Shown piece after piece: positions 5,059-33,736 of a stretch of DNA of 39,892 nt. A model generated the notes under the pieces. It had not been told where the DNA came from, did not search any database, and saw only the letters and a program-made list of their open reading frames with translations. Every line of letters starts with the position of its first letter. The stretch's first letter is position 1. Both the position numbers and the translations under genes were made by a program. Source of the DNA: a virus; the UHGV virus genome UHGV-0038300. One strand, written 5' to 3'.

Positions 5059-5075
5059 ATTACCTTTCGGGTAAT
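5059..5075. promoter_or_regulatory. 17-bp palindromic operator-like site ATTACC-TTTCG-GGTAAT
   Basis: Perfect 6-5-6 inverted repeat belonging to the dispersed site family; upstream of the LexA box and the tail-fibre gene. Confidence 0.6.
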
Positions 5076-5113: not shown

Positions 5114-5129
5114 CTGTATAAATATACAG
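5114..5129. promoter_or_regulatory. LexA (SOS) box CTGT-ATAAATAT-ACAG
   Basis: Perfect CTGT-N8-ACAG with an AT-rich spacer (tactgtataaatatacagtt), 22 bp upstream of the ATG at 5151. Confidence 0.8.
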
Positions 5130-5150
5130 TTATTGCATGGAGAAGATAAG

Positions 5151-5408
5151 ATGCAGCAGTATCACTATCCACTGGAAGACGGATTTACCGAAAGGATTCA
5201 CACGCCGGGAGGCGTCAGATCACTGGTGGAGGGATCGCACTTGATGAAATTACTCCGGGATCTCGATAAGGATGGATTTAATGTCGATGGCCCACTTGCC
5301 GAACTGACTGCACTGATTAACTACGTCACCAGCTCACAGATGTCTATGCGGGATCTGCAAACACATCTCGACTATTGTGCCGAACAATTACGAAAACAAA
5401 CCCGGTAA
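5151..5408 (+). CDS. Small (85 aa) antirepressor-like protein, homologous to the C-terminal domain of the Bro-N antirepressor; candidate SOS-inducible antirepressor
   Basis: RBS ggagaag then ATG 5151. Aligns with the C-terminus of the 6555-7247 product (PL..G....IH.P.GV..L.E.S.LM.LL..L..DG..V.G..AELT......V......RD.QTH..Y). The upstream part of the listed ORF is occupied by regulatory sites. Confidence 0.7.
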   Translation: MQQYHYPLEDGFTERIHTPGGVRSLVEGSHLMKLLRDLDKDGFNVDGPLAELTALINYVTSSQMSMRDLQTHLDYCAEQLRKQTR

Positions 5409-5430: not shown

Positions 5431-6159
5431 CTATCGTTTCGCTTTGTGCTCATCCCAGCACGTTTTGCACCATGCCATTAAGCCGTCCGCATTTTGATTA
5501 TTAGGGTAAAAGCTGGTTCGTTTTCTGCGGACATTACAAATTGGGCACCACTTCATATGGCGTGTATTCTTTGGGCCATCGAGACACCTTGCACACCACT
5601 TAGTCAATCCATCTGGATTTTTTGACGATTTCCTGAATTTTTCATATGGAAGGTTTATTCTGCATCGCAAGCACTGCTTGCTACCACTTGAAACTCTGTT
5701 AGCTGATTCTTCTTTTGGCGGCGATACAGAAGGTATTCTTGCTGGCTCTGATACTGCCTGAGGTGCTTTTTTAGATGACTGAGACGATATGTCACCACCA
5801 GGGAATCTTCCATGATATGCCGGACGCGTTGACACTCCAGGTGGAAGCTCAGCTGTAAACGGCTTTGGCTGAATCAGTTGCCTCTCTTTTGCTAACTCCT
5901 GCTGTTTATAATATGTCTGGATTACCGCACTATCATAAGCAGGAGGTGCGGAAATATTAGGCGCATTACCTCCAGTTTTTTGAAACTGAGTAGAGGTGTG
6001 TTCTATCACCTGTGTACGATTAATCGTTATCTCCCCATCTTCGGTCTTTATCGTTTTGTTATGATTAACGACCGTACGATCAGAGATCTTAGTCTTGTTC
6101 TGGTTGATAACGTAAATAATCACCGCAACCACACCAACAACTATCCAGAAAACTTCCAT
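5431..6159 (-). CDS. Membrane-anchored protein with a C-terminal duplicated Cys-rich (zinc-ribbon-like) module; function unknown
   Basis: N-terminal TM helix (MEVFWIVVGVVAVIIYVI), Pro/Ser-rich linker, then CLRC...WCARC and CPIC...WCKTC repeats; RBS gaggaaaag before the ATG; operator-like site just upstream. Confidence 0.6.
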   Translation of the reverse strand: MEVFWIVVGVVAVIIYVINQNKTKISDRTVVNHNKTIKTEDGEITINRTQVIEHTSTQFQKTGGNAPNISAPPAYDSAVIQTYYKQQELAKERQLIQPKPFTAELPPGVSTRPAYHGRFPGGDISSQSSKKAPQAVSEPARIPSVSPPKEESANRVSSGSKQCLRCRINLPYEKFRKSSKNPDGLTKWCARCLDGPKNTRHMKWCPICNVRRKRTSFYPNNQNADGLMAWCKTCWDEHKAKR

Positions 6160-6178
6160 TTCTTTTCCTCACAATAAC

Positions 6179-6195
6179 ATTACCTTAAAGGTAAT
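6179..6195. promoter_or_regulatory. 17-bp palindromic operator-like site ATTACC-TTAAA-GGTAAT
   Basis: Perfect inverted repeat about 20 bp upstream of the 5431-6159 gene start (minus strand). Confidence 0.6.
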
Positions 6196-6271
6196 ATCTT
6201 GCTTTCAGGTGATCAAGCGTTAAACCAAATCAACCAAATACGGTTGATTTTAATATTTCTTCACGTTTATC

Positions 6272-6288
6272 ATTACCTTTGAGGTAAA
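6272..6288. promoter_or_regulatory. 17-bp operator-like site ATTACC-TTTGA-GGTAAA overlapping a putative rightward promoter
   Basis: Overlaps a -10-like TATCAT (6268-6273) set 18 bp after a -35-like TTGATT (6244-6249). Confidence 0.5.
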
Positions 6289-6554
6289 TTTACATCGCAC
6301 TCCTCTTGTGCCATAGTAATCGGGCACTGGCAAAATCCAGTGCCGGGATTGGTCTCCCGGATTACTACAGAGGCACATATGCCGCATAAGCGGTTTTTTT
6401 ATGTGTAAAGCGCACCTATTCTATGGTGGGCTGTGTGGGGGCACCGAAAGGTGCGCCGGGTTCCTTTGTAGCCGGTAAGACCAACTCTGCACAGTTCACC
6501 ACCATCTGATTGGTCTCAGCGGTGGTGATTAACCTAACTACAAAGGTGATCGCC

Positions 6555-7247
6555 ATGAATACCAAACCTTCCATCTTTTCCTTTGAGTCATCCTGCCAGA
6601 TCCGTATGTTCATGATTGACGGAGAACCTTGGTTTGTCACCAAAGATGTGTGCAATGCTTTGAATATTGATGTTACACAAGCGAGAAAACTTGATAAAAA
6701 AGGCTGGAACAAAAAGGGGCTGTATTCAATACAGACCCCTGGTGGAATACAAGAACTATCCATCGTTTCAGAATCAGGTCTCTACATCCTTATTCTGCGT
6801 TGCAAAGAGGCAATGACAGGGGGAACGAGAGCATTCAGATTTCTTGAATGGGTTACAGGTGAGGTTCTTCCTCAGATCCGCCGCACAGGAAGTTACATTA
6901 AAAACTCGCTCCCGCAGGAAGAACGCATAAAGATGGTTGCCGACCAGGTAGCCAACGCCACGGCGTCAGCAGTAATGCAGGCGATGAAGATAGAGAACAA
7001 AACCTACAGTGCCCCGCTGAAGCCCGGCTACCGCAGCCTGATTCATTCGCCGTCTGGTGTTCTCGGCCTGACGGAGAACTCACTGCTGATGAATTTGCTG
7101 AACCAGTTACAGGAAGACGGGCATGATGTATCGGGCGCGGCAGCGGAGCTGACCACCATGTTCTGCTACATCGTCGGTGTGAGCAAATGCCTGCGTGACA
7201 TCCAGACTCACGCGGAGTACATCAACGACAAAGCAGGGTTCTTCTGA
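6555..7247 (+). CDS. Antirepressor with an N-terminal Bro-N domain
   Basis: N-terminus ...FSFESSCQIRMFMIDGEPWFVTKDVCNALNI... is typical of Bro-N/Ant proteins; RBS aaggtga before ATG 6555 (the listed ORF begins at an upstream TTG). Confidence 0.8.
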   Translation: MNTKPSIFSFESSCQIRMFMIDGEPWFVTKDVCNALNIDVTQARKLDKKGWNKKGLYSIQTPGGIQELSIVSESGLYILILRCKEAMTGGTRAFRFLEWVTGEVLPQIRRTGSYIKNSLPQEERIKMVADQVANATASAVMQAMKIENKTYSAPLKPGYRSLIHSPSGVLGLTENSLLMNLLNQLQEDGHDVSGAAAELTTMFCYIVGVSKCLRDIQTHAEYINDKAGFF

Positions 7248-7311
7248 CGGCGGCGGCACAGGGATGTGCCTTTAAAATAATCATTGGCGATGTGATGTAG
7301 ATTCGCGTAAT

Positions 7312-7328
7312 ATTACCTTAAAGGTAAA
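7312..7328. promoter_or_regulatory. 17-bp operator-like site ATTACC-TTAAA-GGTAAA
   Basis: Inverted repeat about 25 bp upstream of the 7354 start codon. Confidence 0.55.
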
Positions 7329-7353
7329 CCATGTGTTTACATGAGGAGGAGAT

Positions 7354-7563
7354 ATGGGATTTTGGTTCGCTCGTACAAAAACGAGGGATAATGCACCCAG
7401 CCCTCAGGCAAAAAATGCAGAAGTTCCGGCGTCAGCGCAGGTTAACAAGCGTGGTGGAGTATATATCTCATCACAGCAAATTTCTGAGCTTCCTGAGGTT
7501 AAGGAGATGCGTCGTCTCGCTGCTGCAATTGTTAAACAGGATCTTGCCACTGTAAGGAAGTAG
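7354..7563 (+). CDS. Small hypothetical protein (69 aa), first gene of a two-gene accessory module
   Basis: Strong RBS gaggaggag 6 nt before the ATG; its stop TAG overlaps the GTG start of the next ORF by one nucleotide. Confidence 0.55.
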   Translation: MGFWFARTKTRDNAPSPQAKNAEVPASAQVNKRGGVYISSQQISELPEVKEMRRLAAAIVKQDLATVRK

Positions 7564-8429
7564 TGTTGCTAGCTCTTCTAATTATCCCAATCCTGGTTAG
7601 CGGTTATATTATGATAACCGCTAACCAGTATCATTATTTCCGTTTATACCGACACGAAGGCCAGCTTCTTTATATGAAAGTAGCGGCACTAGGTACATAT
7701 TGCCTTGTTGCATCAGTAATAATTGCAGCCGCTATAAAATATAAATGGCCTGATTTTCACCTAGTTCACGATATGGTGGAAACTTTTAATGTAACATCAA
7801 AACCAGAAACAGATAGAATTTACATGTGGCTGCTTCTTCTCTCAGCCACATCCATTTGCTTCTCTTTGTGTTATGTGTCTGTTGTGTGGGTGAAAGATTT
7901 TCTTCTTGGTTGTTTTTATAAACGTGATATTTACGAGCAAAAAACAGAGGCAATGAAGGCCAGAGTACTGCGAAAAACTTACTCGCAAGGTTCTTTAGAC
8001 TTACTATTGCTTGATGCTATTGAATCGGATCCTAAACGACCAATGCTGATTACTTTATCATCAAACAAAGTGTATGTTGGAATAATAAATGGTTCTGGTG
8101 AACCAACGGAAAATCAGGGTCCGCATCAGCACATATCTTTTGTTCCTTTAATGTCAGGATACAGGAACAAAGAAAACTTATCTGTCACATTCACTAATGC
8201 TTATCCAGGAGAAATACAGGTCAAGCGGACTGCAGCAATAAGAGGAATTAGCAGAAAGAAAGTGCCAGGACTTGAGATCATGGTGTCTATTGACGAAATA
8301 AGTTATATATCATGGTTTGATTTTGAAGTATATAAAGCAACAAATAACAAAGTAGAATCCAGGGGGCACGTTATTCGTGTTACCAAAAATGGAAGAAATA
8401 TATATCAAAGAAATAGCAAAAAAGAATAG
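7563..8429 (+). CDS. Hypothetical membrane protein (3 N-terminal TM helices plus a ~170-aa soluble C-terminal domain); candidate exclusion/abortive-infection-type accessory protein
   Basis: Long ORF with hydrophobic helices at about aa 2-18, 35-58 and 85-110; markedly AT-rich compared with flanking phage genes; exact start (GTG 7563 or a nearby codon) uncertain. Confidence 0.6.
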   Translation: MLLALLIIPILVSGYIMITANQYHYFRLYRHEGQLLYMKVAALGTYCLVASVIIAAAIKYKWPDFHLVHDMVETFNVTSKPETDRIYMWLLLLSATSICFSLCYVSVVWVKDFLLGCFYKRDIYEQKTEAMKARVLRKTYSQGSLDLLLLDAIESDPKRPMLITLSSNKVYVGIINGSGEPTENQGPHQHISFVPLMSGYRNKENLSVTFTNAYPGEIQVKRTAAIRGISRKKVPGLEIMVSIDEISYISWFDFEVYKATNNKVESRGHVIRVTKNGRNIYQRNSKKE

Positions 8430-8521
8430 CCCGCGCTGCGGGCTTTTTTGTGGACGAAACAAAAGTCAGTGCTACACTCATTGACGCCACATTGAGGTGG
8501 CTTATAGATGGAAATTTCACA

Positions 8522-8683
8522 ATGAAAAAAGCATTTGCTGCACTGTTCGTTTTGTTGTCTCTGGTAGCTTCAACTCAGGCCTTTGCCGGTCGTTGTCAGC
8601 ACGACAGCGATACTGCTGCAGACGGCTCCCGCTGCGGTGGGCGTTCTGCGGATTCCCGCCCGGGCGGCGGTGGCATTCGTTAA
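8522..8683 (+). CDS. Small secreted peptide candidate (53 aa; signal peptide then a Gly/Arg/Cys-rich tail)
   Basis: MKKAFAALFVLLSLVASTQAFA|GRC... has a classic Sec signal peptide; sigma70-like -35 TTGACG (8481-8486) and -10 TATAGA (8503-8508) upstream; the RBS is weak. Confidence 0.4.
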   Translation: MKKAFAALFVLLSLVASTQAFAGRCQHDSDTAADGSRCGGRSADSRPGGGGIR

Positions 8684-8705
8684 AAACAAGGCCGCGAAAG
8701 CGGCC
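8682..8705 (-). terminator. Rho-independent terminator closing the late structural operon
   Basis: GC stem ggccgc-gaaa-gcggcc (8690-8705) followed, on the minus strand, by a T-run (complement of aaaaa 8682-8686). Confidence 0.6.
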
Positions 8706-8719
8706 TGTGACATGTCACG
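8706..8719. repeat. Palindrome tGTGACATGTCACg, copy 1 of 3
   Basis: Perfect 12-bp palindrome GTGACATGTCAC immediately abutting the terminator stem; same core at 25588-25601 and 27853-27866. Confidence 0.7.
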
Positions 8720-8725
8720 CTCACG

Positions 8726-8866
8726 TTATGACAAGCCTATGTACCCTGCTACACCAGATAATATCAAAATAACTGCAACAGCAAATTCACCATCATCAAT
8801 GATACATTTACGGTTCATAACGCCAAGTGCAACAAGCGCAAACACAACAAGAATAAAAGCAATCAT
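8726..8866 (-). CDS. Small hydrophobic protein (46 aa, two predicted TM segments), not in the supplied ORF track
   Basis: Manual translation MIAFILVVFALVALGVMNRKCIIDDGEFAVAVILILSGVAGYIGLS*; RBS aaggatga before the ATG; lies between the last ejection-protein gene and the terminator. Confidence 0.4.
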   Translation of the reverse strand: MIAFILVVFALVALGVMNRKCIIDDGEFAVAVILILSGVAGYIGLS

Positions 8867-8875
8867 TTCTCATCC

Positions 8876-11350
8876 TTATTGCGGAGTGACATCCTGAGGT
8901 CGCCACCAGTATGTCTGGTTAAACTCTTTCTTCGAACGTTGCTCCATTTTACGCAAATAACCTGGTGAAAAATACTCCTGCATCTGGTTAAAGATCATGT
9001 GATCGAGAGCCGCCTTTAAGTACCAGAGATTCGCACCTGGCATCAGACCTTTCCCCAGCTTGACCAGATCACCACCAGTCTGCTCATTCTTCCCTTCCAC
9101 AGCATTTAACGGTATGCCCTGAGCAATCTTCACTACGTCATCAACCAGACCAGCTACCGGGCCAAGCATCGACGCCAGCGCGCCGCTTCCGTACCTAGTG
9201 TGATCTGACAATAAAAAGTCACCGTAAAGGCCAAGACCACCACCTTTCAGTAGAGCACCAAGCCAAAATTTAGCAGCATCTTCTCCTGTCATCTCACGAG
9301 GATTACGACCAGACGCAAGGTCGTTAAGTTGCTGCGACAAAGCGCCAAGAATGGTCGTACTGGCAATAAACGTCGCAATATATGCCGCACGCCCACCAGC
9401 AGACGGCATACCCATAGCGCGTGACCAGTGACGCATAACCACCGAGATAGGGAACGATTTAAACAGGAAAACACTTCTCGTTAATTCACCTTTCCATGTT
9501 CCACGCTGAATACCAGAACCGGTTATCAGTTGCTCACGTGCTCCCGGTGTAATAACAGCCATATCAACTTCTTCAGTTACGGCACCGAGCAGTTTACGCA
9601 TTGCCTCAAATTTCACGCGTTCAGACTCACCAAGATGTTTAACTGCTGAATCAGGGATACGCATAATGCTTTCCGGTGTCAGCATCGTATTATTACCGTT
9701 CCCCCAGTCCTCCTGTTGCGCCAGCTTCCATACGCTCCAGTCTGTGTCAGTAATCCCTTTGCTTTTCAGGATACGAAAATCAGAGTCATCGAGGCTACGA
9801 AGGTCTGGTGTCCGTGACACTACTTCTCCCAGGCTTCCCATCATGGTTACGCCATAGGCGCGCTTGTGCGCATCTGACCATGCTGTAAGCCCACTGGCAC
9901 GCATTACCGCCGTTGCCGCCCAACGAGACACTGACGGCCCCATATTATCCATCGCCCAGCGGTTAACGCTGCCAAGTAGAGATTCCATCGCCAGACCAGC
10001 GCGGCGCGCCCGCGCAAGTTCTGTACGGTTCGTTGGGTCCATAGCTTCAAGCTGGTTGCGGAATAACTGGTTCATTGGAAGGTTGGTAACCTTCGCAGAC
10101 AGATACATGGTTCCAAGATCAGAGAACGATGACAGCAACGCGGATCCGAGTCTGCTGGCAACCAGCCAGTTGCGGATATTGTCAGACCATCGCGCGATGT
10201 GCGGATTCGCTACAGGCTGTGTCTTTCCGGAAATAAAGTTGTACAGATTCTCTGTGTTGTTCGCCAGCCGCTCGACTTTACCGGTTTTACTCGGGTTAGC
10301 TGTTGCCGTTTCTGCCTTAACCTGATCAAGAAGGGAGCGGAAAACATGATCGGGGTTTGGACCATATGTTTCCACCAGAGCAATATCTTTACTGATACCT
10401 TCCAGGTGACCGACCATGATTTCCCATAGAGAGCGATCACCATAAAGTTGTTGATATTGGAGATAGGAATCTGCATCTTTGAAATGTATCTGTCGTGATG
10501 CATTACCACGGTTAGCACGTGCGCCGGAAATTCGCATTCCGGTATCAGTAAGCTTATTCAGCCCACCAGTAGCGATCGTGTTATAAGCCTCTCCAAGAAA
10601 TGCAGACAACTCGGCATCGTTCATCAGTTGTCCATCGGCTCGGGTATAATATTTGCGATCCAGCTTACCTATAACATCGCCAACCCACTTATCCTTTGAT
10701 ACCGCCCCAACCTTTTCCATAGAATGATGTTGAGGGATCCCCCAGTTTTCGAGATAGCCAATGTCCCCACCAGCATCATTAAACCGGCGGCGCAGCAGCT
10801 CTGTAACTTCTCTCCACGCCTTAGCACCTTTTCTTGCTTTAGCATTGCCAGTATTTTGCCCTCGCATTTCATATACCAGGTCACGCACGCCAGCTTCATC
10901 TTCAAACAGGCCAAAAAAGCGAGGATCAACTGCTTCAAATGCCTCTTGCAATTGACTCAATGCATAATCACGAGTGGCTTTTGTTCTGGACTCAACAGAG
11001 AGGAAATTCGATTTACCGTCTGCATTAAAAGCAATAGTACGGTTAAGAGCGCCAAGTTTCCCATCAGCCCCTTGATAGCTATTGATAAATTTATCCAATC
11101 TCTGACGTGCGGCTATAGTGAGGGCCACACGACGTTTCTTTAATGCCGCTTCTCGCTGTAATTCTTCAGATGCCAATTGTGCTGCACGATATAGCCGCTC
11201 TGATTCGGAAAGTTGTCTCCACGACATCGGGTCATCACGAGCAATGGAGCGCATATTTCGATAAATGCGGTCTTCAATGTTCTGTATTTCTCGCGCCGTT
11301 AACGTGCGCTGCGCCGCCTGCTGGACCGCTTGTATACATTCCTGTCTCAT
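8876..11350 (-). CDS. Large internal virion / DNA-ejection protein (gp16-position in a T7-like order)
   Basis: 824-aa ORF at the end of the structural operon after two other large ejection-type proteins; no enzymatic motif recognised. Confidence 0.6.
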   Translation of the reverse strand: MRQECIQAVQQAAQRTLTAREIQNIEDRIYRNMRSIARDDPMSWRQLSESERLYRAAQLASEELQREAALKKRRVALTIAARQRLDKFINSYQGADGKLGALNRTIAFNADGKSNFLSVESRTKATRDYALSQLQEAFEAVDPRFFGLFEDEAGVRDLVYEMRGQNTGNAKARKGAKAWREVTELLRRRFNDAGGDIGYLENWGIPQHHSMEKVGAVSKDKWVGDVIGKLDRKYYTRADGQLMNDAELSAFLGEAYNTIATGGLNKLTDTGMRISGARANRGNASRQIHFKDADSYLQYQQLYGDRSLWEIMVGHLEGISKDIALVETYGPNPDHVFRSLLDQVKAETATANPSKTGKVERLANNTENLYNFISGKTQPVANPHIARWSDNIRNWLVASRLGSALLSSFSDLGTMYLSAKVTNLPMNQLFRNQLEAMDPTNRTELARARRAGLAMESLLGSVNRWAMDNMGPSVSRWAATAVMRASGLTAWSDAHKRAYGVTMMGSLGEVVSRTPDLRSLDDSDFRILKSKGITDTDWSVWKLAQQEDWGNGNNTMLTPESIMRIPDSAVKHLGESERVKFEAMRKLLGAVTEEVDMAVITPGAREQLITGSGIQRGTWKGELTRSVFLFKSFPISVVMRHWSRAMGMPSAGGRAAYIATFIASTTILGALSQQLNDLASGRNPREMTGEDAAKFWLGALLKGGGLGLYGDFLLSDHTRYGSGALASMLGPVAGLVDDVVKIAQGIPLNAVEGKNEQTGGDLVKLGKGLMPGANLWYLKAALDHMIFNQMQEYFSPGYLRKMEQRSKKEFNQTYWWRPQDVTPQ

Positions 11351-27150: not shown

Positions 27151-27746
27151 TGATTACCATCCTGACGTTCTTTGAGTCGCTTCCTGGCTGCTGCTATGCG
27201 ATCAGCAATTGTCACATTCACATTAACATCCAGACGTTCTTTGAACGCGTTGACATCAACATGCTTACCAATCAGCTCAAGGTTCTTCACCTTGTCAGGC
27301 CATTTAATTTTTTTGAGGATTGTCTCTATCGAATCCTCGTTCATGTTCATGATGGTCGATGACAGATCAAAGCCACTAAGCGTAGTGCGCCAGATTTTCG
27401 GCCACTCACGGATTGGTTTAAGGCTCCCATCGTCGTTGAGGATGTCGATCACGTCCATCTGGTCGATCTCCACCAGGCGCATGAGAACGTAATCAGCACT
27501 GACGCGCATTCGTTTGTTGCGCTCCTCCATCAACTCGGCAATCCGTTTTTGAATGCGTTCATCGCGCATCATGACACTGGCTTTAACTGCCGCTGTATTT
27601 GGGGAGAATCCTGCGTTAATCGCTGCCTGAGTCTGGTTTTCAGGCGTTTTGATGTATGACTGGCAATAAGCCTCCTGCATTGCTGTTAGTGGCTTAAATT
27701 GCGTTGATTTGCGTTTATAGGTTTTAGGTTCAGCAGGCATCATAAC
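27147..27746 (-). CDS. Terminase small subunit
   Basis: HTH-containing N-terminus (...LTAMQEAYCQSYIKTPENQTQAAINAGFS...) typical of small terminases; the listed ORF extends to a TTG at 27821, but an ATG near 27746 with an upstream RBS is more likely. Confidence 0.7.
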   Translation of the reverse strand, partial: VMMPAEPKTYKRKSTQFKPLTAMQEAYCQSYIKTPENQTQAAINAGFSPNTAAVKASVMMRDERIQKRIAELMEERNKRMRVSADYVLMRLVEIDQMDVIDILNDDGSLKPIREWPKIWRTTLSGFDLSSTIMNMNEDSIETILKKIKWPDKVKNLELIGKHVDVNAFKERLDVNVNVTIADRIAAARKRLKERQDGNQ

Positions 27747-27786
27747 CACCGTGGTAATAGTTACCGTTGTGGTAATAGTACCATGC

Positions 27787-27812
27787 AAAATAAAGCCGCC
27801 ATAGTTGGCGGC
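27787..27812 (-). terminator. Terminator-like hairpin in the leader of the late operon, upstream of the small terminase
   Basis: On the minus strand: gccgcc-aactat-ggcggc followed by tttatttt. Confidence 0.45.
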
Positions 27813-27852
27813 AGTATTCAAAACCCATCAAATTCATCATGCATAATCTACT

Positions 27853-27866
27853 CGTGACATGTCACA
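27853..27866. repeat. Palindrome cGTGACATGTCACa, copy 3 of 3
   Basis: Same core as the other two copies; overlaps the stop codon of the 27862-28203 gene, about 40 bp upstream of the late-leader hairpin. Confidence 0.7.
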
Positions 27867-28203
27867 CTATTAATTTCGTTTCATGCCAGCCTTTAGTCAC
27901 CCAGCATTGCGAGTCACCATTACACGGGCATGAATTAACTGGAACTCTCTCGCCGCACTTACCGCAACATTTTCTGCTGATCGATTTTATACGCCCGCGC
28001 ACGCGTGCATCATCCTGGCGGATCAGTAACGCTATATACTCACCAAATTCGTAAGGCGCACGCCCGGGGCGACGCGTGGCACAGTTACGCTCCAGCATTT
28101 CAATTTCCTGAGCATCAAGCACAATTTCCAGCTTACGCACACCAGATGCAGCTTGTCTGGCTCTCTGAGCGGCTTTGCGCTCTGCTGCTGATTTAGCCAT
28201 CAA
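27862..28203 (-). CDS. Small basic protein with a C-terminal Cys cluster; candidate late-gene regulator
   Basis: 113 aa with CCGKCGERVPVNSCPCNGDSQC (zinc-binding-like); last gene before the late promoter region. The function is inferred from position only. Confidence 0.4.
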   Translation of the reverse strand: MMAKSAAERKAAQRARQAASGVRKLEIVLDAQEIEMLERNCATRRPGRAPYEFGEYIALLIRQDDARVRGRIKSISRKCCGKCGERVPVNSCPCNGDSQCWVTKGWHETKLIV

Positions 28204-29326: not shown

Positions 29327-29970
29327 TGGATGACTCCTTTACGAAGCTGTTCCGCCCATTCTTCAAGGGATTTCTCCGCATATTCACCAGACAGGCCATC
29401 AATCGGATGCGGTTCATTAGCCAACTCTTCTTTCGCTGACAAAATCATGCGTGTAACGTCGAAAACTTCACGCAAAGACTTATTGATAAATCCGTGATTG
29501 AACGCAGCAGCAAGACGGCTTGCGGTGTAGTTAATCCCCTCGTTGCGTGCCTCCGCACGTATTTCAGCCAAGAAAGCATCGGTGGCTGACATATTTCCTG
29601 TTGCCTTCATGGCCTTCAAAATAACCAGAACGTCATCTTGCCCAACCAACTCGGAGATAATCTCAGTGTTGTCGCCAACAACCTCACAGAATGCCTGAAC
29701 AGCTTTACGAGCAAGTGCATTCTCCGCCGCCAGCGCCGAAAACTTCTCGTGCGCCAACTTAACAGCCGAATCAGCCTGCTTAATTGACTCAATCGCTTTC
29801 TGCTGGTCTTCGGCCAGCGCATTAGCACGCACCAGTTGCACTTCCAGTTGCGTTGCCAAATCGCTGATCAGCTTTGCCACACTGCGCATATCAACGGCAC
29901 CACATTCTGCTTTCAGTTCCGAAGCCATCTCATGCCCGGCGGCAACTAACCCTTTGATATTACTTTCCAT
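29323..29970 (-). CDS. Hypothetical phage protein (coiled-coil rich)
   Basis: 215-aa ORF in the nin-like region between replication and late genes. Confidence 0.5.
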   Translation of the reverse strand: MESNIKGLVAAGHEMASELKAECGAVDMRSVAKLISDLATQLEVQLVRANALAEDQQKAIESIKQADSAVKLAHEKFSALAAENALARKAVQAFCEVVGDNTEIISELVGQDDVLVILKAMKATGNMSATDAFLAEIRAEARNEGINYTASRLAAAFNHGFINKSLREVFDVTRMILSAKEELANEPHPIDGLSGEYAEKSLEEWAEQLRKGVIQ

Positions 29971-30031
29971 CTTTACCCTCGCTTATCCACATAACTTATT
30001 GATTACATTGATAACTAAAAAGATCGTCGAT

Positions 30032-30379
30032 TCAGAACTCTTCGATGTTCCAGCCGCCACCTGCTTTCTTTGGTTTAACCGTTACCCCGATGATTCGGAA
30101 CGGATACTGATCTGCGGCTACTTTGGTTTTCACCCTGGCGTCGTCGGTCCAGAATCCCCCTTTCACTTCGTGCAGTTCCATCTCTCCGGTGGCGAGCATC
30201 ACAGCGAAATCGGGCGTATAGAACGTGTTGTCAGCTAACCGCAGCTTGATACCCTCGAATCGATACCAGGCGATTTCCCCTGCACGTTTACGCTGCTCAA
30301 GGTGCTGGCAATACGCAGATTCTGTTTTGTTCATCTGGCCTGTTTTGAGTCGACCAAGAGCCTGTATCTGTTTTCTCAT
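30032..30379 (-). CDS. PD-(D/E)xK nuclease-fold protein (DUF1064-like)
   Basis: ...YTPDFAVM...ELHEVKGG... matches a D...E.K nuclease signature; 115 aa. Confidence 0.45.
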   Translation of the reverse strand: MRKQIQALGRLKTGQMNKTESAYCQHLEQRKRAGEIAWYRFEGIKLRLADNTFYTPDFAVMLATGEMELHEVKGGFWTDDARVKTKVAADQYPFRIIGVTVKPKKAGGGWNIEEF

Positions 30380-30382
30380 GAT

Positions 30383-30399
30383 TTACCTCTAAGGTAATT
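30383..30399. promoter_or_regulatory. 17-bp operator-like site TTTACC-TCTAA-GGTAAT
   Basis: In the intergenic region just upstream of the 30379 start codon. Confidence 0.55.
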
Positions 30400-30443
30400 A
30401 AAAACCACATAAGACACGAAATCAATAGAGTTTAGAATATTTT

Positions 30444-30460
30444 GTTACCTTATAGGTAAT
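30444..30460. promoter_or_regulatory. 17-bp operator-like site GTTACC-TTATA-GGTAAT
   Basis: Second site in the same intergenic region, 61 bp from the first. Confidence 0.55.
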
Positions 30461-30496
30461 TGTTGAGGCGTAAAAAAATGCGCTATCGCGCTGGTA

Positions 30497-31297
30497 TTAC
30501 TTGATAAATCCTGCCGCCTTTCCCCGCCTGTATTCCTCCATCAGCCACTGCGCCGGTGTTATTCCCCCAAGGGTGGCGGCGTTAGGCATGCACCCGAAAC
30601 TTCGCCCTGGTGGATGGTAAACGTCTCTCCCTGTGTCTGGAGGTGTACTCATGGGCTCTGGCTTTGCCTGTATGCTGATCACCGGATCGGGTATCTGCTG
30701 TCCGGAAGCCACCTTTTTCGCCCAATCATCGAGCAGCCTGCGCGCGTGTTTCTCAACCTCAATCTCGCTAAGCTGGCGCTGATACATTGCACGGCGGGTA
30801 TCACATACGACCCAGTACATAACCGGATGCCGCCACGGGAATCTTTCGGGACCACCAGGATATAAACTTTTTTCCTTGCTGTACCGGTGAAACTCCGCCA
30901 TCACATCGTCAATGGTGACGCCAAGAACCATCTTGCTGTCTTTGCACCACTTGATGAATTGCCCTGGCGACGGCCAGAACGGAGATTCACTGGCGCGGGC
31001 GTGGCGCATACCAGCAGAAACCTGTTCACGGGTTCGGATCCCACCTTCGGCAAACGCAGCAATCCACTGCTGTTTTGCAGCGACTTCCTGCTCTGGCGTC
31101 TTCAGGTTGGTTACCACTGCCGCCGGAAACAGTTGTTTCAGCTGTTTGAAAAGGGCATCAACAAGCCTCTCTGCTGACATGTTCACCACGTTGTCATTGT
31201 TGGTGTACTGATGCTCATAACCTGACATGCGAGAAAGGGCTTCTCCGTCACGGTTTTGTATCGCGGTAAAAACGTTGTTCACAAGAAATCCTCCCAT
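30497..31297 (-). CDS. Replication protein, lambda P-like (helicase loader)
   Basis: Clear similarity to lambda P (e.g. ...GIRTREQVSAGMRHA...FWPSPGQFIKWC... versus lambda ...GITTMEQVNAGMRVA...FLPSPGQFVAWC...). Confidence 0.8.
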   Translation of the reverse strand: MGGFLVNNVFTAIQNRDGEALSRMSGYEHQYTNNDNVVNMSAERLVDALFKQLKQLFPAAVVTNLKTPEQEVAAKQQWIAAFAEGGIRTREQVSAGMRHARASESPFWPSPGQFIKWCKDSKMVLGVTIDDVMAEFHRYSKEKSLYPGGPERFPWRHPVMYWVVCDTRRAMYQRQLSEIEVEKHARRLLDDWAKKVASGQQIPDPVISIQAKPEPMSTPPDTGRDVYHPPGRSFGCMPNAATLGGITPAQWLMEEYRRGKAAGFIK

Positions 31298-32094
31298 GCT
31301 TCAGGGCTGTTCCAGTGCGGAACGTTGTTATCAGGTAATGTTGATTGCTTCTGTCTGCTAATCTGCAGCCGCCTTGCCAGCTTCTGCTCCCACTGTGCCT
31401 GATGGTATGCCTTACCCTCAGCCATCCAGTAAATTCTGAACTCTGCAAGTTCCTGTGCCGTTGGCAGACTGTCTAGGTAGATCCCCTGCAATGAGCTTTT
31501 CCGAAGAAAGTCATCTGATGGGTGCCATTGTTCATGCATGACAAATTTGCCTAATTGCCCTGGCCCACCAGGAGGAACAAAGTTATTCATCACGGCGTTG
31601 TTTGCGCCGGGGTCATGAGGCACAGAATCCCCGGTTTTTGTCCTGCTCTCCCTCTCTTGGTTAAATGACTGGTTATATGACTGGTTCTGGATCCCGTTTT
31701 TGGGATCATTCAACATCCCGTTTTTGGGATCATTCAACATCCCGTTTTTGGGTATATTCCCGTTTTCGGTAACATTACCGTTTTCGGGTTCATTACCCCC
31801 TTCCCGGTTGCCTTTAATGTTCCCGTTTTTGGTTATATTAAGAGAGAAAACCCGCACTCTTTTCGTCGCTCCCTTTCTCTCTCCGGTATCTGAAATAAGC
31901 CCCATTTTCATGAGCGATATAAGTCCGGCCTGCACGGTTTTTTTATTCAGGCAAGTGTCTTTAACGAGGCGTTCTATGCTGGGGTAGCAGAGGTTATATT
32001 CATCGGCTCTGTCAGCCATCGAGAGCAGTATGAGCTTTAATGACGAGCTACCTGGATCTGTCTCCCAGGCCCAATCTGTTGCATGTCTGCTCAT
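31279..32094 (-). CDS. Replication initiator (lambda O analog) with an N-terminal winged-HTH and iterons inside the gene
   Basis: N-terminal HTH-like region, a central repetitive NGN-rich linker encoded by DNA iterons, and a C-terminal DnaT-like region; located directly upstream of the P-like gene. Confidence 0.7.
   Translation of the reverse strand: MSRHATDWAWETDPGSSSLKLILLSMADRADEYNLCYPSIERLVKDTCLNKKTVQAGLISLMKMGLISDTGERKGATKRVRVFSLNITKNGNIKGNREGGNEPENGNVTENGNIPKNGMLNDPKNGMLNDPKNGIQNQSYNQSFNQERESRTKTGDSVPHDPGANNAVMNNFVPPGGPGQLGKFVMHEQWHPSDDFLRKSSLQGIYLDSLPTAQELAEFRIYWMAEGKAYHQAQWEQKLARRLQISRQKQSTLPDNNVPHWNSPEAWEDFL
31691..31840. repeat. Origin-type iterons: 5-6 tandem repeats with core (t)cccgttttt/cgg, first two copies 24 bp each
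   Basis: atcccgtttttgggatcattcaac is repeated exactly at 31691-31714 and 31715-31738, followed by degenerate copies; embedded in the initiator gene as for the lambda origin. Confidence 0.7.
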
Positions 32095-32109
32095 GATTAA
32101 TCTCCGCTA

Positions 32110-32310
32110 TCAGCTTGAATGTTGTGGGGAGGAATTAATCATGATCTGCTTAATCTCTGCCCTGATACGACGGTTTGATTCCATGGTGCACTCAACACAG
32201 TGTCCGTTGTAAACCCAGCGTTCACTGTCATGTCCGTGCTTACATGTTTTTCCGGTGTAGTAGCGTTTAAGTCCGCGCTTTGCGGCATCAATACGTGTAA
32301 TGATTTCCAT
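32110..32310 (-). CDS. Small zinc-ribbon protein (possible cII-position regulator)
   Basis: MEIITRIDAAKRGLKRYYTGKTCKHGHDSERWVYNGHCVECT... has a C..H...C..C pattern; start codon uncertain (the ORF extends to a TTG at 32373). Confidence 0.4.
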   Translation of the reverse strand: MEIITRIDAAKRGLKRYYTGKTCKHGHDSERWVYNGHCVECTMESNRRIRAEIKQIMINSSPQHSS

Positions 32311-32389
32311 GGTAAGCCCTGTTATTAGTATTGGGATTACGGTCATTTTGTGCTGACACAAAAAAAAGATCAACCAGATTTGGTTTTTT

Positions 32390-32406
32390 ATTACCTTTGA
32401 GGTACG
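32390..32406. promoter_or_regulatory. 17-bp operator-like site ATTACC-TTTGA-GGTACG
   Basis: Between the Cro-like gene and the zinc-ribbon gene; one mismatch in the right half. Confidence 0.45.
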
Positions 32407-32460
32407 AATAGATATGAAAAGACCGCCGGGTGGCGGTCTACAGAGGGTTGTAGCTGGATA

Positions 32461-32691
32461 TCATGAGTAGAAGAAGTATGCCAGTTCTGCTTTTGAGCGC
32501 AGCCATTGCCTTGTTTTACAGGCTTTAAAAAGCCCATTCATCAATACTTTACCTGGCATTTTGCGCTTACCTGTTAAGTGAGTCTGGATATAGTGACTCG
32601 TCGTTCCGGCTTCCTGTGCGAAGGCTTCACGCTCATCCGGAGTAAGTGCAAGCCAGTGCTTTTTGAAATCGAAATGTCCGTTATCGCTCAT
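32461..32691 (-). CDS. Cro/YdaS-like small HTH regulator
   Basis: 76 aa, divergent from the repressor gene; ...AQEAGTTSHYIQTHLTGKRKMPGKV... resembles YdaS/Cro-type HTH proteins. Confidence 0.6.
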   Translation of the reverse strand: MSDNGHFDFKKHWLALTPDEREAFAQEAGTTSHYIQTHLTGKRKMPGKVLMNGLFKACKTRQWLRSKAELAYFFYS

Positions 32692-32726
32692 AGCTATTGC
32701 CTGATATTTATTTCAGATAATAAATA

Positions 32727-32791
32727 TTCACCCATAAGGTAACAAAAATCAAGGATAGTTACCTATGAGGTGCATTTACCTGTTGGGTAAT
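32727..32791. promoter_or_regulatory. Right operator region: three 17-bp sites at 32727-32743, 32758-32774 and 32775-32791 between the divergent cro-like and repressor genes
   Basis: TTcACC-CATAA-GGTAAC, GTTACC-TATGA-GGTgcA and TTTACC-TGTTG-GGTAAT; tripartite arrangement as in lambdoid OR. Confidence 0.65.
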
Positions 32792-32845
32792 ATTGCTTTA
32801 AATTGAATCATCTACTGATTCATATATGAGGCGATTTTCCAGAAA

Positions 32846-33430
32846 ATGAAAAGTATCCAGGACGTCCGCAGGCAAAATCTCAACGACTTGATCGACCGTG
32901 AATTCAATGGTGTTCAGACGCGGATGGCAGAAAAACTTGGAACTCAGGCAAATCTGGTAAACCGCTGGGCTCTTGGCAAGAAGGTTATCGGCGACCAGGT
33001 TGCGCGAAAAATTGAAGCTGCCGCCAATAAACCACGTAACTGGCTTGATATCGATCGCTCGCTTTCTCAGGAAGGTTTTCAGCCTGTCGGCCCAAGCGAC
33101 ATTGGTCAGCTGGCGGCTCACAACCTGGAACGCTGGATGAGCGAAAGCCGCGACCTTTCAACACAGGGAAAACTTCACCGCGCATCCGGCGTCGCCCAGG
33201 TGACAATCAGCCGCCTGTTAAACAATGAGGTCAGCGTTTCCATTTCCACCCTGGAGAATGTTGCATCCGCATTCGGGCGTCACGGCTATGAATTACTGAT
33301 TCACCCGCACGACCCTGCGACCATCAACTATGACCGCTCGCGCTACGCATTGTTACCCGAAACCGAGAAAGCAAAGATCGAAAGTTACATTGAATTTGTC
33401 ATCAACCAGAACGAAAAAAACAAACAATAA
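32846..33430 (+). CDS. CI-like prophage repressor with an N-terminal XRE-type HTH, a second HTH-like segment and no LexA/S24 peptidase domain
   Basis: HTH ...VQTRMAEKLGTQANLVNRWALGKK...; no Ser-Lys peptidase signature seen; divergent from the cro-like gene and followed by a strong terminator. Confidence 0.65.
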   Translation: MKSIQDVRRQNLNDLIDREFNGVQTRMAEKLGTQANLVNRWALGKKVIGDQVARKIEAAANKPRNWLDIDRSLSQEGFQPVGPSDIGQLAAHNLERWMSESRDLSTQGKLHRASGVAQVTISRLLNNEVSVSISTLENVASAFGRHGYELLIHPHDPATINYDRSRYALLPETEKAKIESYIEFVINQNEKNKQ

Positions 33431-33451
33431 AATCATACTTTTCAGTAAGTA

Positions 33452-33476
33452 AGCCGCCTTCTGGCGGCTTTTTTAT
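33452..33476 (+). terminator. Rho-independent terminator after the repressor gene
   Basis: agccgcc-ttct-ggcggct followed by tttttt. Confidence 0.75.
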
Positions 33477-33486
33477 TGCCTATACC

Positions 33487-33503
33487 ATTACCTAATGGGT
33501 AAT
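33487..33503. promoter_or_regulatory. Left operator site 1, ATTACC-TAATG-GGTAAT
   Basis: Perfect inverted repeat just after the repressor terminator. Confidence 0.65.
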
Positions 33504-33548
33504 TTTTTTAACTCATATCTATTGACATCAAACCAAATACGCATAATT

Positions 33549-33565
33549 ATTACCTCAACGGTAAC
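33549..33565. promoter_or_regulatory. Left operator site 2, ATTACC-TCAAC-GGTAAC, at the early-left promoter
   Basis: Lies downstream of a consensus -35 TTGACA (33523-33528) and just upstream of the first early-left ORF; an extra GGTAAC half-site at 33573-33578. Confidence 0.6.
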
Positions 33566-33583
33566 AGACCGAGGTAACAAGTT

Positions 33584-33736
33584 ATGCAGTGGAAAATCAT
33601 CAACGGTTGGTACTGCGTTACTGCATGCGGATTCATGAGCTGGAAGTTCCGCACCTTACAGGAAGGCATTAAGTGGGCTTTCGTCAGCAAAGAAGCTCGC
33701 GATGTGGCCAACGATAACGAGATATGGGAGGGCTGA
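33584..33736 (+). CDS. Small hypothetical protein (50 aa), not in the supplied ORF track
   Basis: Manual translation MQWKIINGWYCVTACGFMSWKFRTLQEGIKWAFVSKEARDVANDNEIWEG*; RBS gaggtaac before the ATG. Confidence 0.4.
   Translation: MQWKIINGWYCVTACGFMSWKFRTLQEGIKWAFVSKEARDVANDNEIWEG

Follow-up and report, generated by a model that had tools for sequence, protein, structure and literature searches.

The DNA analyzed in this study, referred to as the window, is the 39,892-nucleotide virus genome UHGV-0038300, which on the basis of its sequence can be assigned to a temperate, phiV10/epsilon15-like podophage (genus Uetakevirus, epsilon15 group). Sequence identity over positions 29900-31400 amounts to 99.5% with Escherichia phage vB_EcoP_PAS61 and to about 98% with phiV10. 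Its early-right genes are carried by the minus strand, and the interval of interest, 30380-30496, lies between a lambda-P-like replication gene, whose open reading frame is closed by a TAA codon at 30499-30497 (minus strand), and a DUF1064 gene (Table 1). An extended N-terminus of the DUF1064 protein, starting from an ATG at 30409, was considered as well, but had to be rejected because this ATG is out of frame. The earlier note on this DNA had referred to the genes downstream of the interval as nin-like, a name that is appropriate with regard to their position and function, given the presence of a gene of the Holliday junction resolvase type, but not with regard to homology, as they are not related to the nin genes of lambda.

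Read on the minus strand, from the stop codon of the P-like gene to the start codon of the DUF1064 gene, the interval has the sequence TAA TACCA GCGC-GATA-GCGC A TTTTTTT ACGCCTCAACAA TTACCTATAAGGTAA CAAAATATTCTAAACT CTATTGATT TCGTGTCTTATGTGGTT TTTAAT-TACCTTAGAGGTAA ATC ATG. It thus contains, in this order, a hairpin with a T-run, a palindrome, a promoter-like element and a second palindrome, which overlaps the ribosome-binding site of the DUF1064 gene.

Table 1. Positions of the genes and putative control elements in and around the interval 30380-30496, together with the PL module used for comparison.
Feature	Position	Strand	Basis or remark
PHROG-536 'transcriptional regulator' gene	27862-28203	-	just ahead of the terminase genes
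Terminase genes			after the regulator gene (27862-28203) in early-right order
eae/ead-like genes		-	follow the DUF1064 gene
DUF1064 gene, first of the downstream unit	30032..30379	-	Pfam DUF1064; PHROG 190 'Holliday junction resolvase', E = 1.2e-43; ATG 30379
Putative proximal Rep operator TTACCTTAGAGGTAA (minus strand)	30383..30397	.	perfect TTACC-N5-GGTAA
-10-like hexamer TTTAAT, 17-nt spacer	30397..30402	-	in the register of AATTAT of PL; weak
-35-like hexamer TTGATT in the conserved block CTATTGA	30420..30425	-	TATTGA invariant in 10 phages
Putative distal Rep operator TTACCTATAAGGTAA (minus strand), half-sites TTACC/GGTAA	30445..30459	.	perfect; half-sites invariant, centre free
12-nt linker, T-run to distal operator	30460..30471	-	length fixed, sequence free; no indels in alignment
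Minimal intrinsic-terminator-like element	30472..30491	-	sequence, fold, conservation
Lambda-P-family replication gene, last of the upstream unit	30497..31297	-	Pfam Phage_lambda_P, E = 1.5e-56; ORF
DnaT/O-like gene	31279-32094	-	contains tandem repeats
Small gene		-	between the terminator 32439-32420 and the DnaT/O-like gene
Strong terminator	32439-32420	-	after the cro-like gene
cro-like gene	32461-32691	-	first in early-right order
Putative operators between the cro-like and Rep genes	32728-32742, 32759-32773, 32776-32790	.	same motif, three copies
Repressor (Rep) gene, two HTH-type domains	32846..33430	+	phmmer vs PDB 5D50, E = 4e-42, residues 1-190
PL module, comparator	33488..33564	+	distal operator 33488-33502; TTGACA-17-AATTAT 33522-33550; proximal operator 33550-33564

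A Terminator-Like Element Behind the Replication Gene

A hairpin with a T-run on the minus strand, which had been proposed to follow directly after the P-like gene at about 30471-30491, was indeed found at 30491-30472. Its stem is formed by G30491-C30488 pairing with G30483-C30480 around a GATA loop and is followed by A30479 and seven T residues at 30478-30472, so that a 4-pair, all-GC stem plus U7 is positioned 6 nt 3′ of the TAA of the P gene. The predicted folding energy of this hairpin amounts to -8.7 kcal/mol including the outer A-U pairs (z = -2.8), as compared to -15 and -17.5 kcal/mol for two clear terminators nearby. Since our terminator scan was restricted to stems of at least five pairs, the element is missing from its output, whereas the homologous hairpin of Klebsiella passes the same scan with six pairs. 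In the record of phiV10 (NC_007804.2), the homologous feature carries the label of a putative rho-independent terminator. Across 10 phages and 6 prophages, differences are seen in the loop but neither in the stem nor in the T-run; as the stem never changes in these 16 genomes, no covariation is found in it. Four pairs are the lower limit for intrinsic terminators, and partial read-through across such a minimal element is therefore likely. Consequently, the downstream block is likely to be transcribed from a promoter of its own plus some read-through, rather than from a promoter "instead of" read-through.

The Palindromes Belong to a Genome-Wide Set of Putative Rep Operators

Both of the operator-like sites that had been described for the interval are present; the coordinates 30444-30460 given for the distal site are exact, whereas those of the proximal one (30383-30399) are off by one base, the 17-mer actually occupying 30382-30398. 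The core of both sites, TTACC-N5-GGTAA, occurs in the window in 11 perfect copies, and 15 matches are obtained when up to one mismatch is allowed (0.75 expected), a number that was reached in none of 100 shuffles. When all spaced palindromes with two 5-bp arms were counted de novo, this motif ranked first with its 11 copies and the runner-up (8 copies) was the same motif extended by one base, with unrelated palindromes reaching at most three copies each. Although 92% of the genome is coding when maximal ORFs are considered, 12 out of 16 operator sites are strictly intergenic and the other four fall into 5′ over-extensions of ORFs or into a spurious antisense ORF, i.e., all 16 copies are non-coding.

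The half-sites seen at 30383 and 30445 are the same as those at 32728, 32759 and 32776 and at 33488 and 33550. As the motif fills the gap between the rep and cro-like genes with three copies and flanks PL with another two, it can be regarded as the immunity operator of this phage. Additional copies precede the start of the terminase small subunit gene, the gene next ahead of the portal gene and the integrase gene, and others follow the cro terminator, separate the tailspike gene from a small Ant-like gene, or surround a BRO-N antirepressor gene. The RefSeq record of epsilon15 (NC_004775.2) lists positions 35906..35922 as "protein_bind: repressor, lysogeny," and this feature aligns with the distal site 30444-30460, both sharing the 17-bp palindrome ATTACC-N5-GGTAAT. 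Repressor sites are also annotated in epsilon15 before terS, gp3 and the tail fibre gene and at PL, and the window likewise has copies at these places. Taken by motif, cognate repressor and positional homology, the sites 30383-30397 and 30445-30459 thus appear to be members of the epsilon15/SPC32H-type Rep operator set, and Rep is predicted to bind to both of them.

The corresponding repressor is probably the product of the gene at 32846-33430, in which a domain search found no peptidase domain. Its N-terminal HTH region is the most conserved part of the protein across eight relatives, while its overall identity to the versions from Salmonella and Klebsiella is only 42-44%. Repressors at this level of identity (from epsilon15, SPN1S, PAT1 and Klebsiella phages) nevertheless keep both the HTH region and the TTACC half-site, which is why covariation of repressor and operator could not be used as a test. 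Distant matches to the N-terminal domain from Paraburkholderia, Hydrogenovibrio, and Thiomicrospira come along with neither this motif nor any other enriched palindrome.

The gene set is reminiscent of Salmonella phage SPC32H, whose repressor has been crystallized and for which a Rep-Ant-LexA switch was reportedly described in 2013 and 2016 (PDB 5D50/5D4Z). The window likewise has a Rep homolog (E = 4e-42), which is however diverged as outlined above, as well as a small Ant-like gene behind a perfect LexA box, and this combination would fit the SOS-controlled small antirepressor of the SPC32H system. The repressor of the SPC32H type is characterized as a tetramer binding to palindromic sites in two publications (PMC9638917, PMC9986798). 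Concerning the antirepressor locus itself, the LexA box TACTGTATAAATATACAGTT is located at 5114-5129, just upstream of the small Ant-like gene (about 5150-5408), and a Rep operator (5060-5074) is found 40 bp further upstream of the box. A match to PHROG-450, which is shared with the C-termini of antirepressors, begins at residue 42 of the maximal ORF of the small gene.

A Promoter-Like Element With the Geometry of PL

Between the two palindromes, a -35-like hexamer is followed by a -10-like hexamer, the last base of which (TTTAAT) is at the same time the first base of the proximal operator. This operator covers the end of the -10 element, the predicted transcription start (about 30390) and the Shine-Dalgarno sequence GAGG (30389-30386), which lies within the palindrome 6 nt ahead of the DUF1064 ATG. 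An alternative -10 hexamer, TTAATT, is available at 30396-30401 with a spacer of 18 nt.

The same arrangement is found at PL, whose promoter TTGACA-17-AATTAT matches the consensus in 10 out of 12 positions according to the promoter scan. In both modules the distal operator is separated by 16 nt from the conserved block, which reads CTATTGACA at PL and CTATTGATT in the internal interval; the -35 is in both cases followed at a distance of 17 nt by the second hexamer (AATTAT vs. TTTAAT); and the proximal operator begins with the last base of that hexamer. The order distal operator, 16 nt, CTATTGA.., 17 nt, hexamer, and TACC of the proximal operator is hence shared, and the operators are spaced by 62 bp from centre to centre at PL as well as in the internal interval. 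These offsets are identical to the base in 10 phages of Escherichia, Salmonella, Klebsiella, and Enterobacter. In other words, the internal interval copies the control region of PL in layout, not in sequence.

The promoter scan asked for sigma-70 hexamers 16-18 nt apart with at least 9 of 12 consensus matches and a -10 with A at position 2 and T at position 6, and on the minus strand of 30380-30496 it called no promoter. While TTGATT-17-TTTAAT reaches 9/12, it has a T at position 2 of the -10, and TTGATT-18-TTAATT scores worse; the -10 candidates of the window accordingly depart from the sigma-70 consensus in lacking the conserved A at position 2. When applied to relatives, the scan does call a promoter at the homologous position of epsilon15 (TTGAAA-18-TAAATT) and of the Klebsiella phage ST512-KPC3phi13.3, with TAAATT at 18 nt being taken as the -10, but none in BUCT554. 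Across the relatives TATTGA is invariant and no indels occur between the -35 and the proximal operator, whereas the spacer sequence varies between genera. The promoter of the window may be a weak one or may depend on an additional factor. On the plus strand, a promoter-like element AAGACA-16-TAGAAT (30411-30438) would be directed antisense into the P gene; its -10 is unconserved outside the E. coli clade, and it was dismissed as probably due to chance.

Conservation and Variability of the Cassette

The interval was compared to the corresponding regions of 16 diverse relatives, namely the 10 phages and 6 prophages of other species mentioned above. The succession of terminator, operator, promoter-like element and operator recurs in all of them (16/16), and the spacing of the operators is 62 bp in 15 (from Escherichia, Salmonella, Klebsiella, Enterobacter, Citrobacter, Erwinia, and Superficieibacter) and 61 bp in the one from Scandinavium. 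Conserved are the hairpin stem, T7, the half-sites, TATTGA, an AT-rich -10 and the spacings, while the remaining sequence of the cassette is free to change. The genes on either side are exchanged, with a P or DnaT-like gene upstream and a DUF1064 or RuvC-type resolvase gene downstream; the latter occupies this place in epsilon15, Tyrion, and PAT1. The slot behind the cassette has thus undergone a non-orthologous replacement, as seen from the DUF1064 gene at 30032-30379 and the unrelated RuvC-type gene of the relative L002 (3039-3503). In E. coli, the cassette was found in 529 out of 5426 complete genomes.

A search of IMG/VR with the repressor yielded only repressors of 100% identity and therefore samples the diversity within a population. 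Among 50 distinct sequences of close relatives, all encoding an identical repressor, no diversity at all was present in the signals (half-sites, hairpin, T7, -35, and -10), whereas the centres of the operators and the linker were highly diverse, the latter with pi values of 0.33-0.54. Positions classified as hypervariable have three to four alleles each and pi values of 0.33-0.60, compared to 0.04-0.06 for third codon positions of the flanking genes. This roughly tenfold excess over synonymous diversity is more than relaxed constraint alone should give. For the 125-bp cassette, 41 haplotypes were counted in 55 sequences as opposed to 8-28 in coding windows inside the P gene, with windows overlapping the cassette or located in the DUF1064 gene reaching up to 39. 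The hypervariable positions are 30450-30453, 30388/30391, and 30462-30468 in the interval, and 33477-33487 and 33494-33497 at PL, where the distal operator exhibits the same pattern.

Proposed Mechanism and Alternative Explanations

The earlier note had suggested that the distal early-right genes are driven by a separate repressor-controlled promoter. This idea is supported by comparative evidence, that is, by the identity of the operators, the annotation of epsilon15, the PL geometry and the recurrence of the layout in 16/16 relatives, from which we infer the activity of the promoter. We therefore favor, with a probability of about two in three, the view that 30380-30496 is a control cassette separating two early transcription units by means of a Rep-controlled internal promoter and an attenuating hairpin. 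According to this model, the hairpin and U7 after the P-like gene would attenuate transcripts originating from the cro-side promoter (PR) and thereby reduce, but probably not abolish, read-through. A promoter module sharing the geometry of PL would begin twelve bases past the T-run, its -35 (TTGATT) being preceded by the distal operator. Lysogens would have both palindromes occupied by the SPC32H-type repressor, which would keep this promoter shut. Since 62 bp correspond to about six helical turns, both operators should be exposed on the same face of the DNA, and a single Rep tetramer may bridge them. The downstream block comprising the resolvase, the eae/ead-like genes and the PHROG-536 regulator would consequently be silenced directly and not only through PR. 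Upon removal of Rep by the LexA-controlled antirepressor, or during a new infection of a Rep-free cell, the promoter would fire together with PR and PL and yield an mRNA whose leader is just about 10 nt long.

The palindromes might, however, also act as Rep operators without any promoter between them, either as a roadblock or clamp at the weak terminator or as anchors for higher-order Rep-DNA complexes with the immunity operators, in which case expression of the genes behind the cassette would depend on PR transcripts that read through after the loss of Rep. In the roadblock variant, Rep bound 12 nt past the U-run would stall the polymerase at the weak terminator and in this way reinforce termination. 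Such a role would agree with the poor -10 of the window phage, where the scan calls no promoter, and with the fact that a terminator followed by an operator within 5-13 nt is also found after the rep and cro-like genes and before terS. Moreover, the Rep family is tetrameric and has been likened to loop-forming regulators (PMC9986798, PMC9638917). The operator pair at terS leaves no room for a promoter, which implies that operators in this phage need not always mark promoters and makes the roadblock or clamp a serious rival. Yet, this rival would explain neither why TATTGA and its 17-nt spacing from an AT-rich hexamer never change and correspond exactly in position to the -35 and -10 of PL, nor why relatives pass the promoter scan at precisely the same place, and overall we consider this possibility unlikely.

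Two further explanations dispense with repressor binding as the primary function. The palindromes could operate at the RNA level by forming hairpins or by pairing with each other in read-through transcripts, thus hiding the Shine-Dalgarno sequence of DUF1064 and controlling its translation. As the operators share their half-sites, the 5′ arm of the distal palindrome can indeed base-pair in read-through RNA with the 3′ arm of the proximal one, thereby burying the GAGG that is contained in the latter, the 121-nt intergenic RNA is predicted to fold with the palindromes inter-paired (-25.9 kcal/mol, z = -2.8), and the palindrome at 7313-7327 is arranged in the same way immediately ahead of the ATG at 7331. 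A single hairpin on its own has little stability, though (-4.2 kcal/mol, z = -1.0), and copies of the motif are also located in regions of divergent promoters and on the upstream side of -35 elements, where a function in RNA would make no sense. The half-sites are furthermore invariant in 16 genomes, with free centres and without G-U or compensatory changes, a pattern that fits recognition of DNA by a protein and not an RNA stem. A known RNA family was rejected as an explanation since there is no Rfam match: the search of 29800-33700 returned only two sub-threshold chance matches, with a snoRNA model hitting the interval at E = 0.79. RNA pairing could at most be a side effect on top of the DNA function, and as an explanation of its own it is very improbable. 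Finally, the presence of the same sequence of about 120 bp between differing replication genes upstream and differing resolvases downstream could mean that the cassette is merely a recombination joint of mosaic phages, with the motif copies being passengers that have no regulatory role at this place. A joint driven by homology should look different from what was observed, as conservation is confined to recognizable signals while the rest is the most variable DNA in the vicinity, and enrichment and non-coding placement of the motif both argue for a function; we thus give this explanation hardly any credence. A transcript started at the internal promoter, as assumed in the favored model, would by the way be devoid of the pairing between distal and proximal palindromes.

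Going beyond the internal promoter as such, it is conceivable, albeit only tentatively proposed here, that phages of this family split their early-right genes into insulated cassettes, each headed by the same module of a terminator, an operator, a promoter and an operator doubling as ribosome site, which reproduces the geometry of PL and is clamped by one Rep tetramer across 62 bp, that no antitermination is used for early timing, that a single antirepressor event frees at least three early promoters, and that the operator centres and the linker, as mutational or recombinational hot spots, could tune the strength of repression between otherwise identical prophages.

Comparison With Known Systems

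Salmonella phage epsilon15 (NC_004775.2) and phiV10 (NC_007804.2) represent the same family as the window and have the cassette at the same position, the intergenic sequence of epsilon15 being 75% identical. In their records only the distal site is marked, whereas the proximal site over the ribosome-binding site, the rep/cro-like operators and any promoter are not, and the annotations appear to be sequence-based. The elements of the cassette are hence already partly annotated in these two records, and the cassette is a conserved and common feature of the family. For ZX5, four promoters have been predicted in the published text, which gives no details on operators or on this locus.

In comparison to lambda, the window displays similarities at two points: the terminator that sets the replication genes apart from a following block with a Holliday-junction resolvase-type gene recalls tR2 and nin, and a repressor with palindromic operators at divergent early promoters recalls OL/PL and OR/PR. 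In its mode of action, the cassette would thus correspond to an operator/promoter of the lambda type. However, lambda is not known to have an operator or a promoter at tR2, where transcripts are extended by N antitermination, while in the window a copy of the PL control region comes after the terminator. The presence of two operators and of PL-like geometry behind the terminator means that this cassette does not follow the tR2/nin design. Rep also differs from the lambda repressor in that it has two HTH domains, lacks an S24 peptidase domain and would be removed by an antirepressor.

With the C1 operators of P1 and the stoperators of mycobacteriophage L5, systems are known in which one immunity repressor uses many scattered non-coding sites to silence several units directly. 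The sites of both phages are asymmetric, and the stoperators of L5 are orientation-dependent, lie inside transcription units and block elongation. The 16 dispersed non-coding operators of the window resemble these systems and, viewed as a regulon, especially the dispersed operators of P1. In contrast to P1 and L5, the sites of the window are palindromic, the internal pair has promoter geometry and the repressors are not known to be homologous. Being perfect palindromes that bracket a promoter-like element, the internal sites are not considered stoperators of the L5 type.

The cassette would not represent a new kind of mechanism, as repressor-controlled secondary promoters and dispersed operators are already known. 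Still, should the internal promoter exist, a common prophage family would have the middle of its early-right operon silenced directly by the immunity repressor. The tight silencing of lysogens would thereby find an explanation that requires no antitermination cascade like that of lambda, and the silenced block would include the regulator gene before the packaging genes. Such a control might be of relevance for the engineering of phiV10-type reporter phages and for the interpretation of prophage induction data.

Additional Observations in the Window

The operators before terS form a pair at 27743-27775, 18 bp apart, one of them perfect and the other mismatched, and are placed between a terminator hairpin (about 27790-27815) and the homology-supported start of the terminase small subunit. 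This placement points to a further direct action of the repressor where the late genes begin, perhaps by forming a roadblock. The succession of a terminator and a Rep operator within about 5-13 nt is repeated at 33451-33502 (rep), 32391-32439 (cro-like), and 30445-30491 (P-like). As a polymerase paused on the U-run would abut the bound repressor at such sites, repressor-assisted termination is conceivable.

The genes listed for PAS61, the closest phage, include nothing that corresponds to an accessory block at 5431-8897, a result that refers to a comparison of annotations only. The block contains a second antirepressor gene, of the BRO-N/Ant type (6510-7247), a gene for a 242-aa zinc-finger/endonuclease VII-like protein (5431-6159) and genes of unknown function, and is flanked by three perfect Rep operators (6180-6194, 6273-6287, and 7313-7327). 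The last of these ends 3 nt ahead of the ATG at 7331 and is preceded by a TAATAT hexamer, which is again the layout of an operator serving as ribosome site, as seen for 30383-30397.

Within the DnaT/O-like gene, tandem repeats were detected at 31658-31797 (24 bp x 2.6 with 100% identity, 18 bp x 3.1, and 12 bp x 2.4). At the protein level, they correspond to NGMLNDPK repeats; they had been mis-scored as two terminator-like hairpins and probably represent the iterons of the replication origin.
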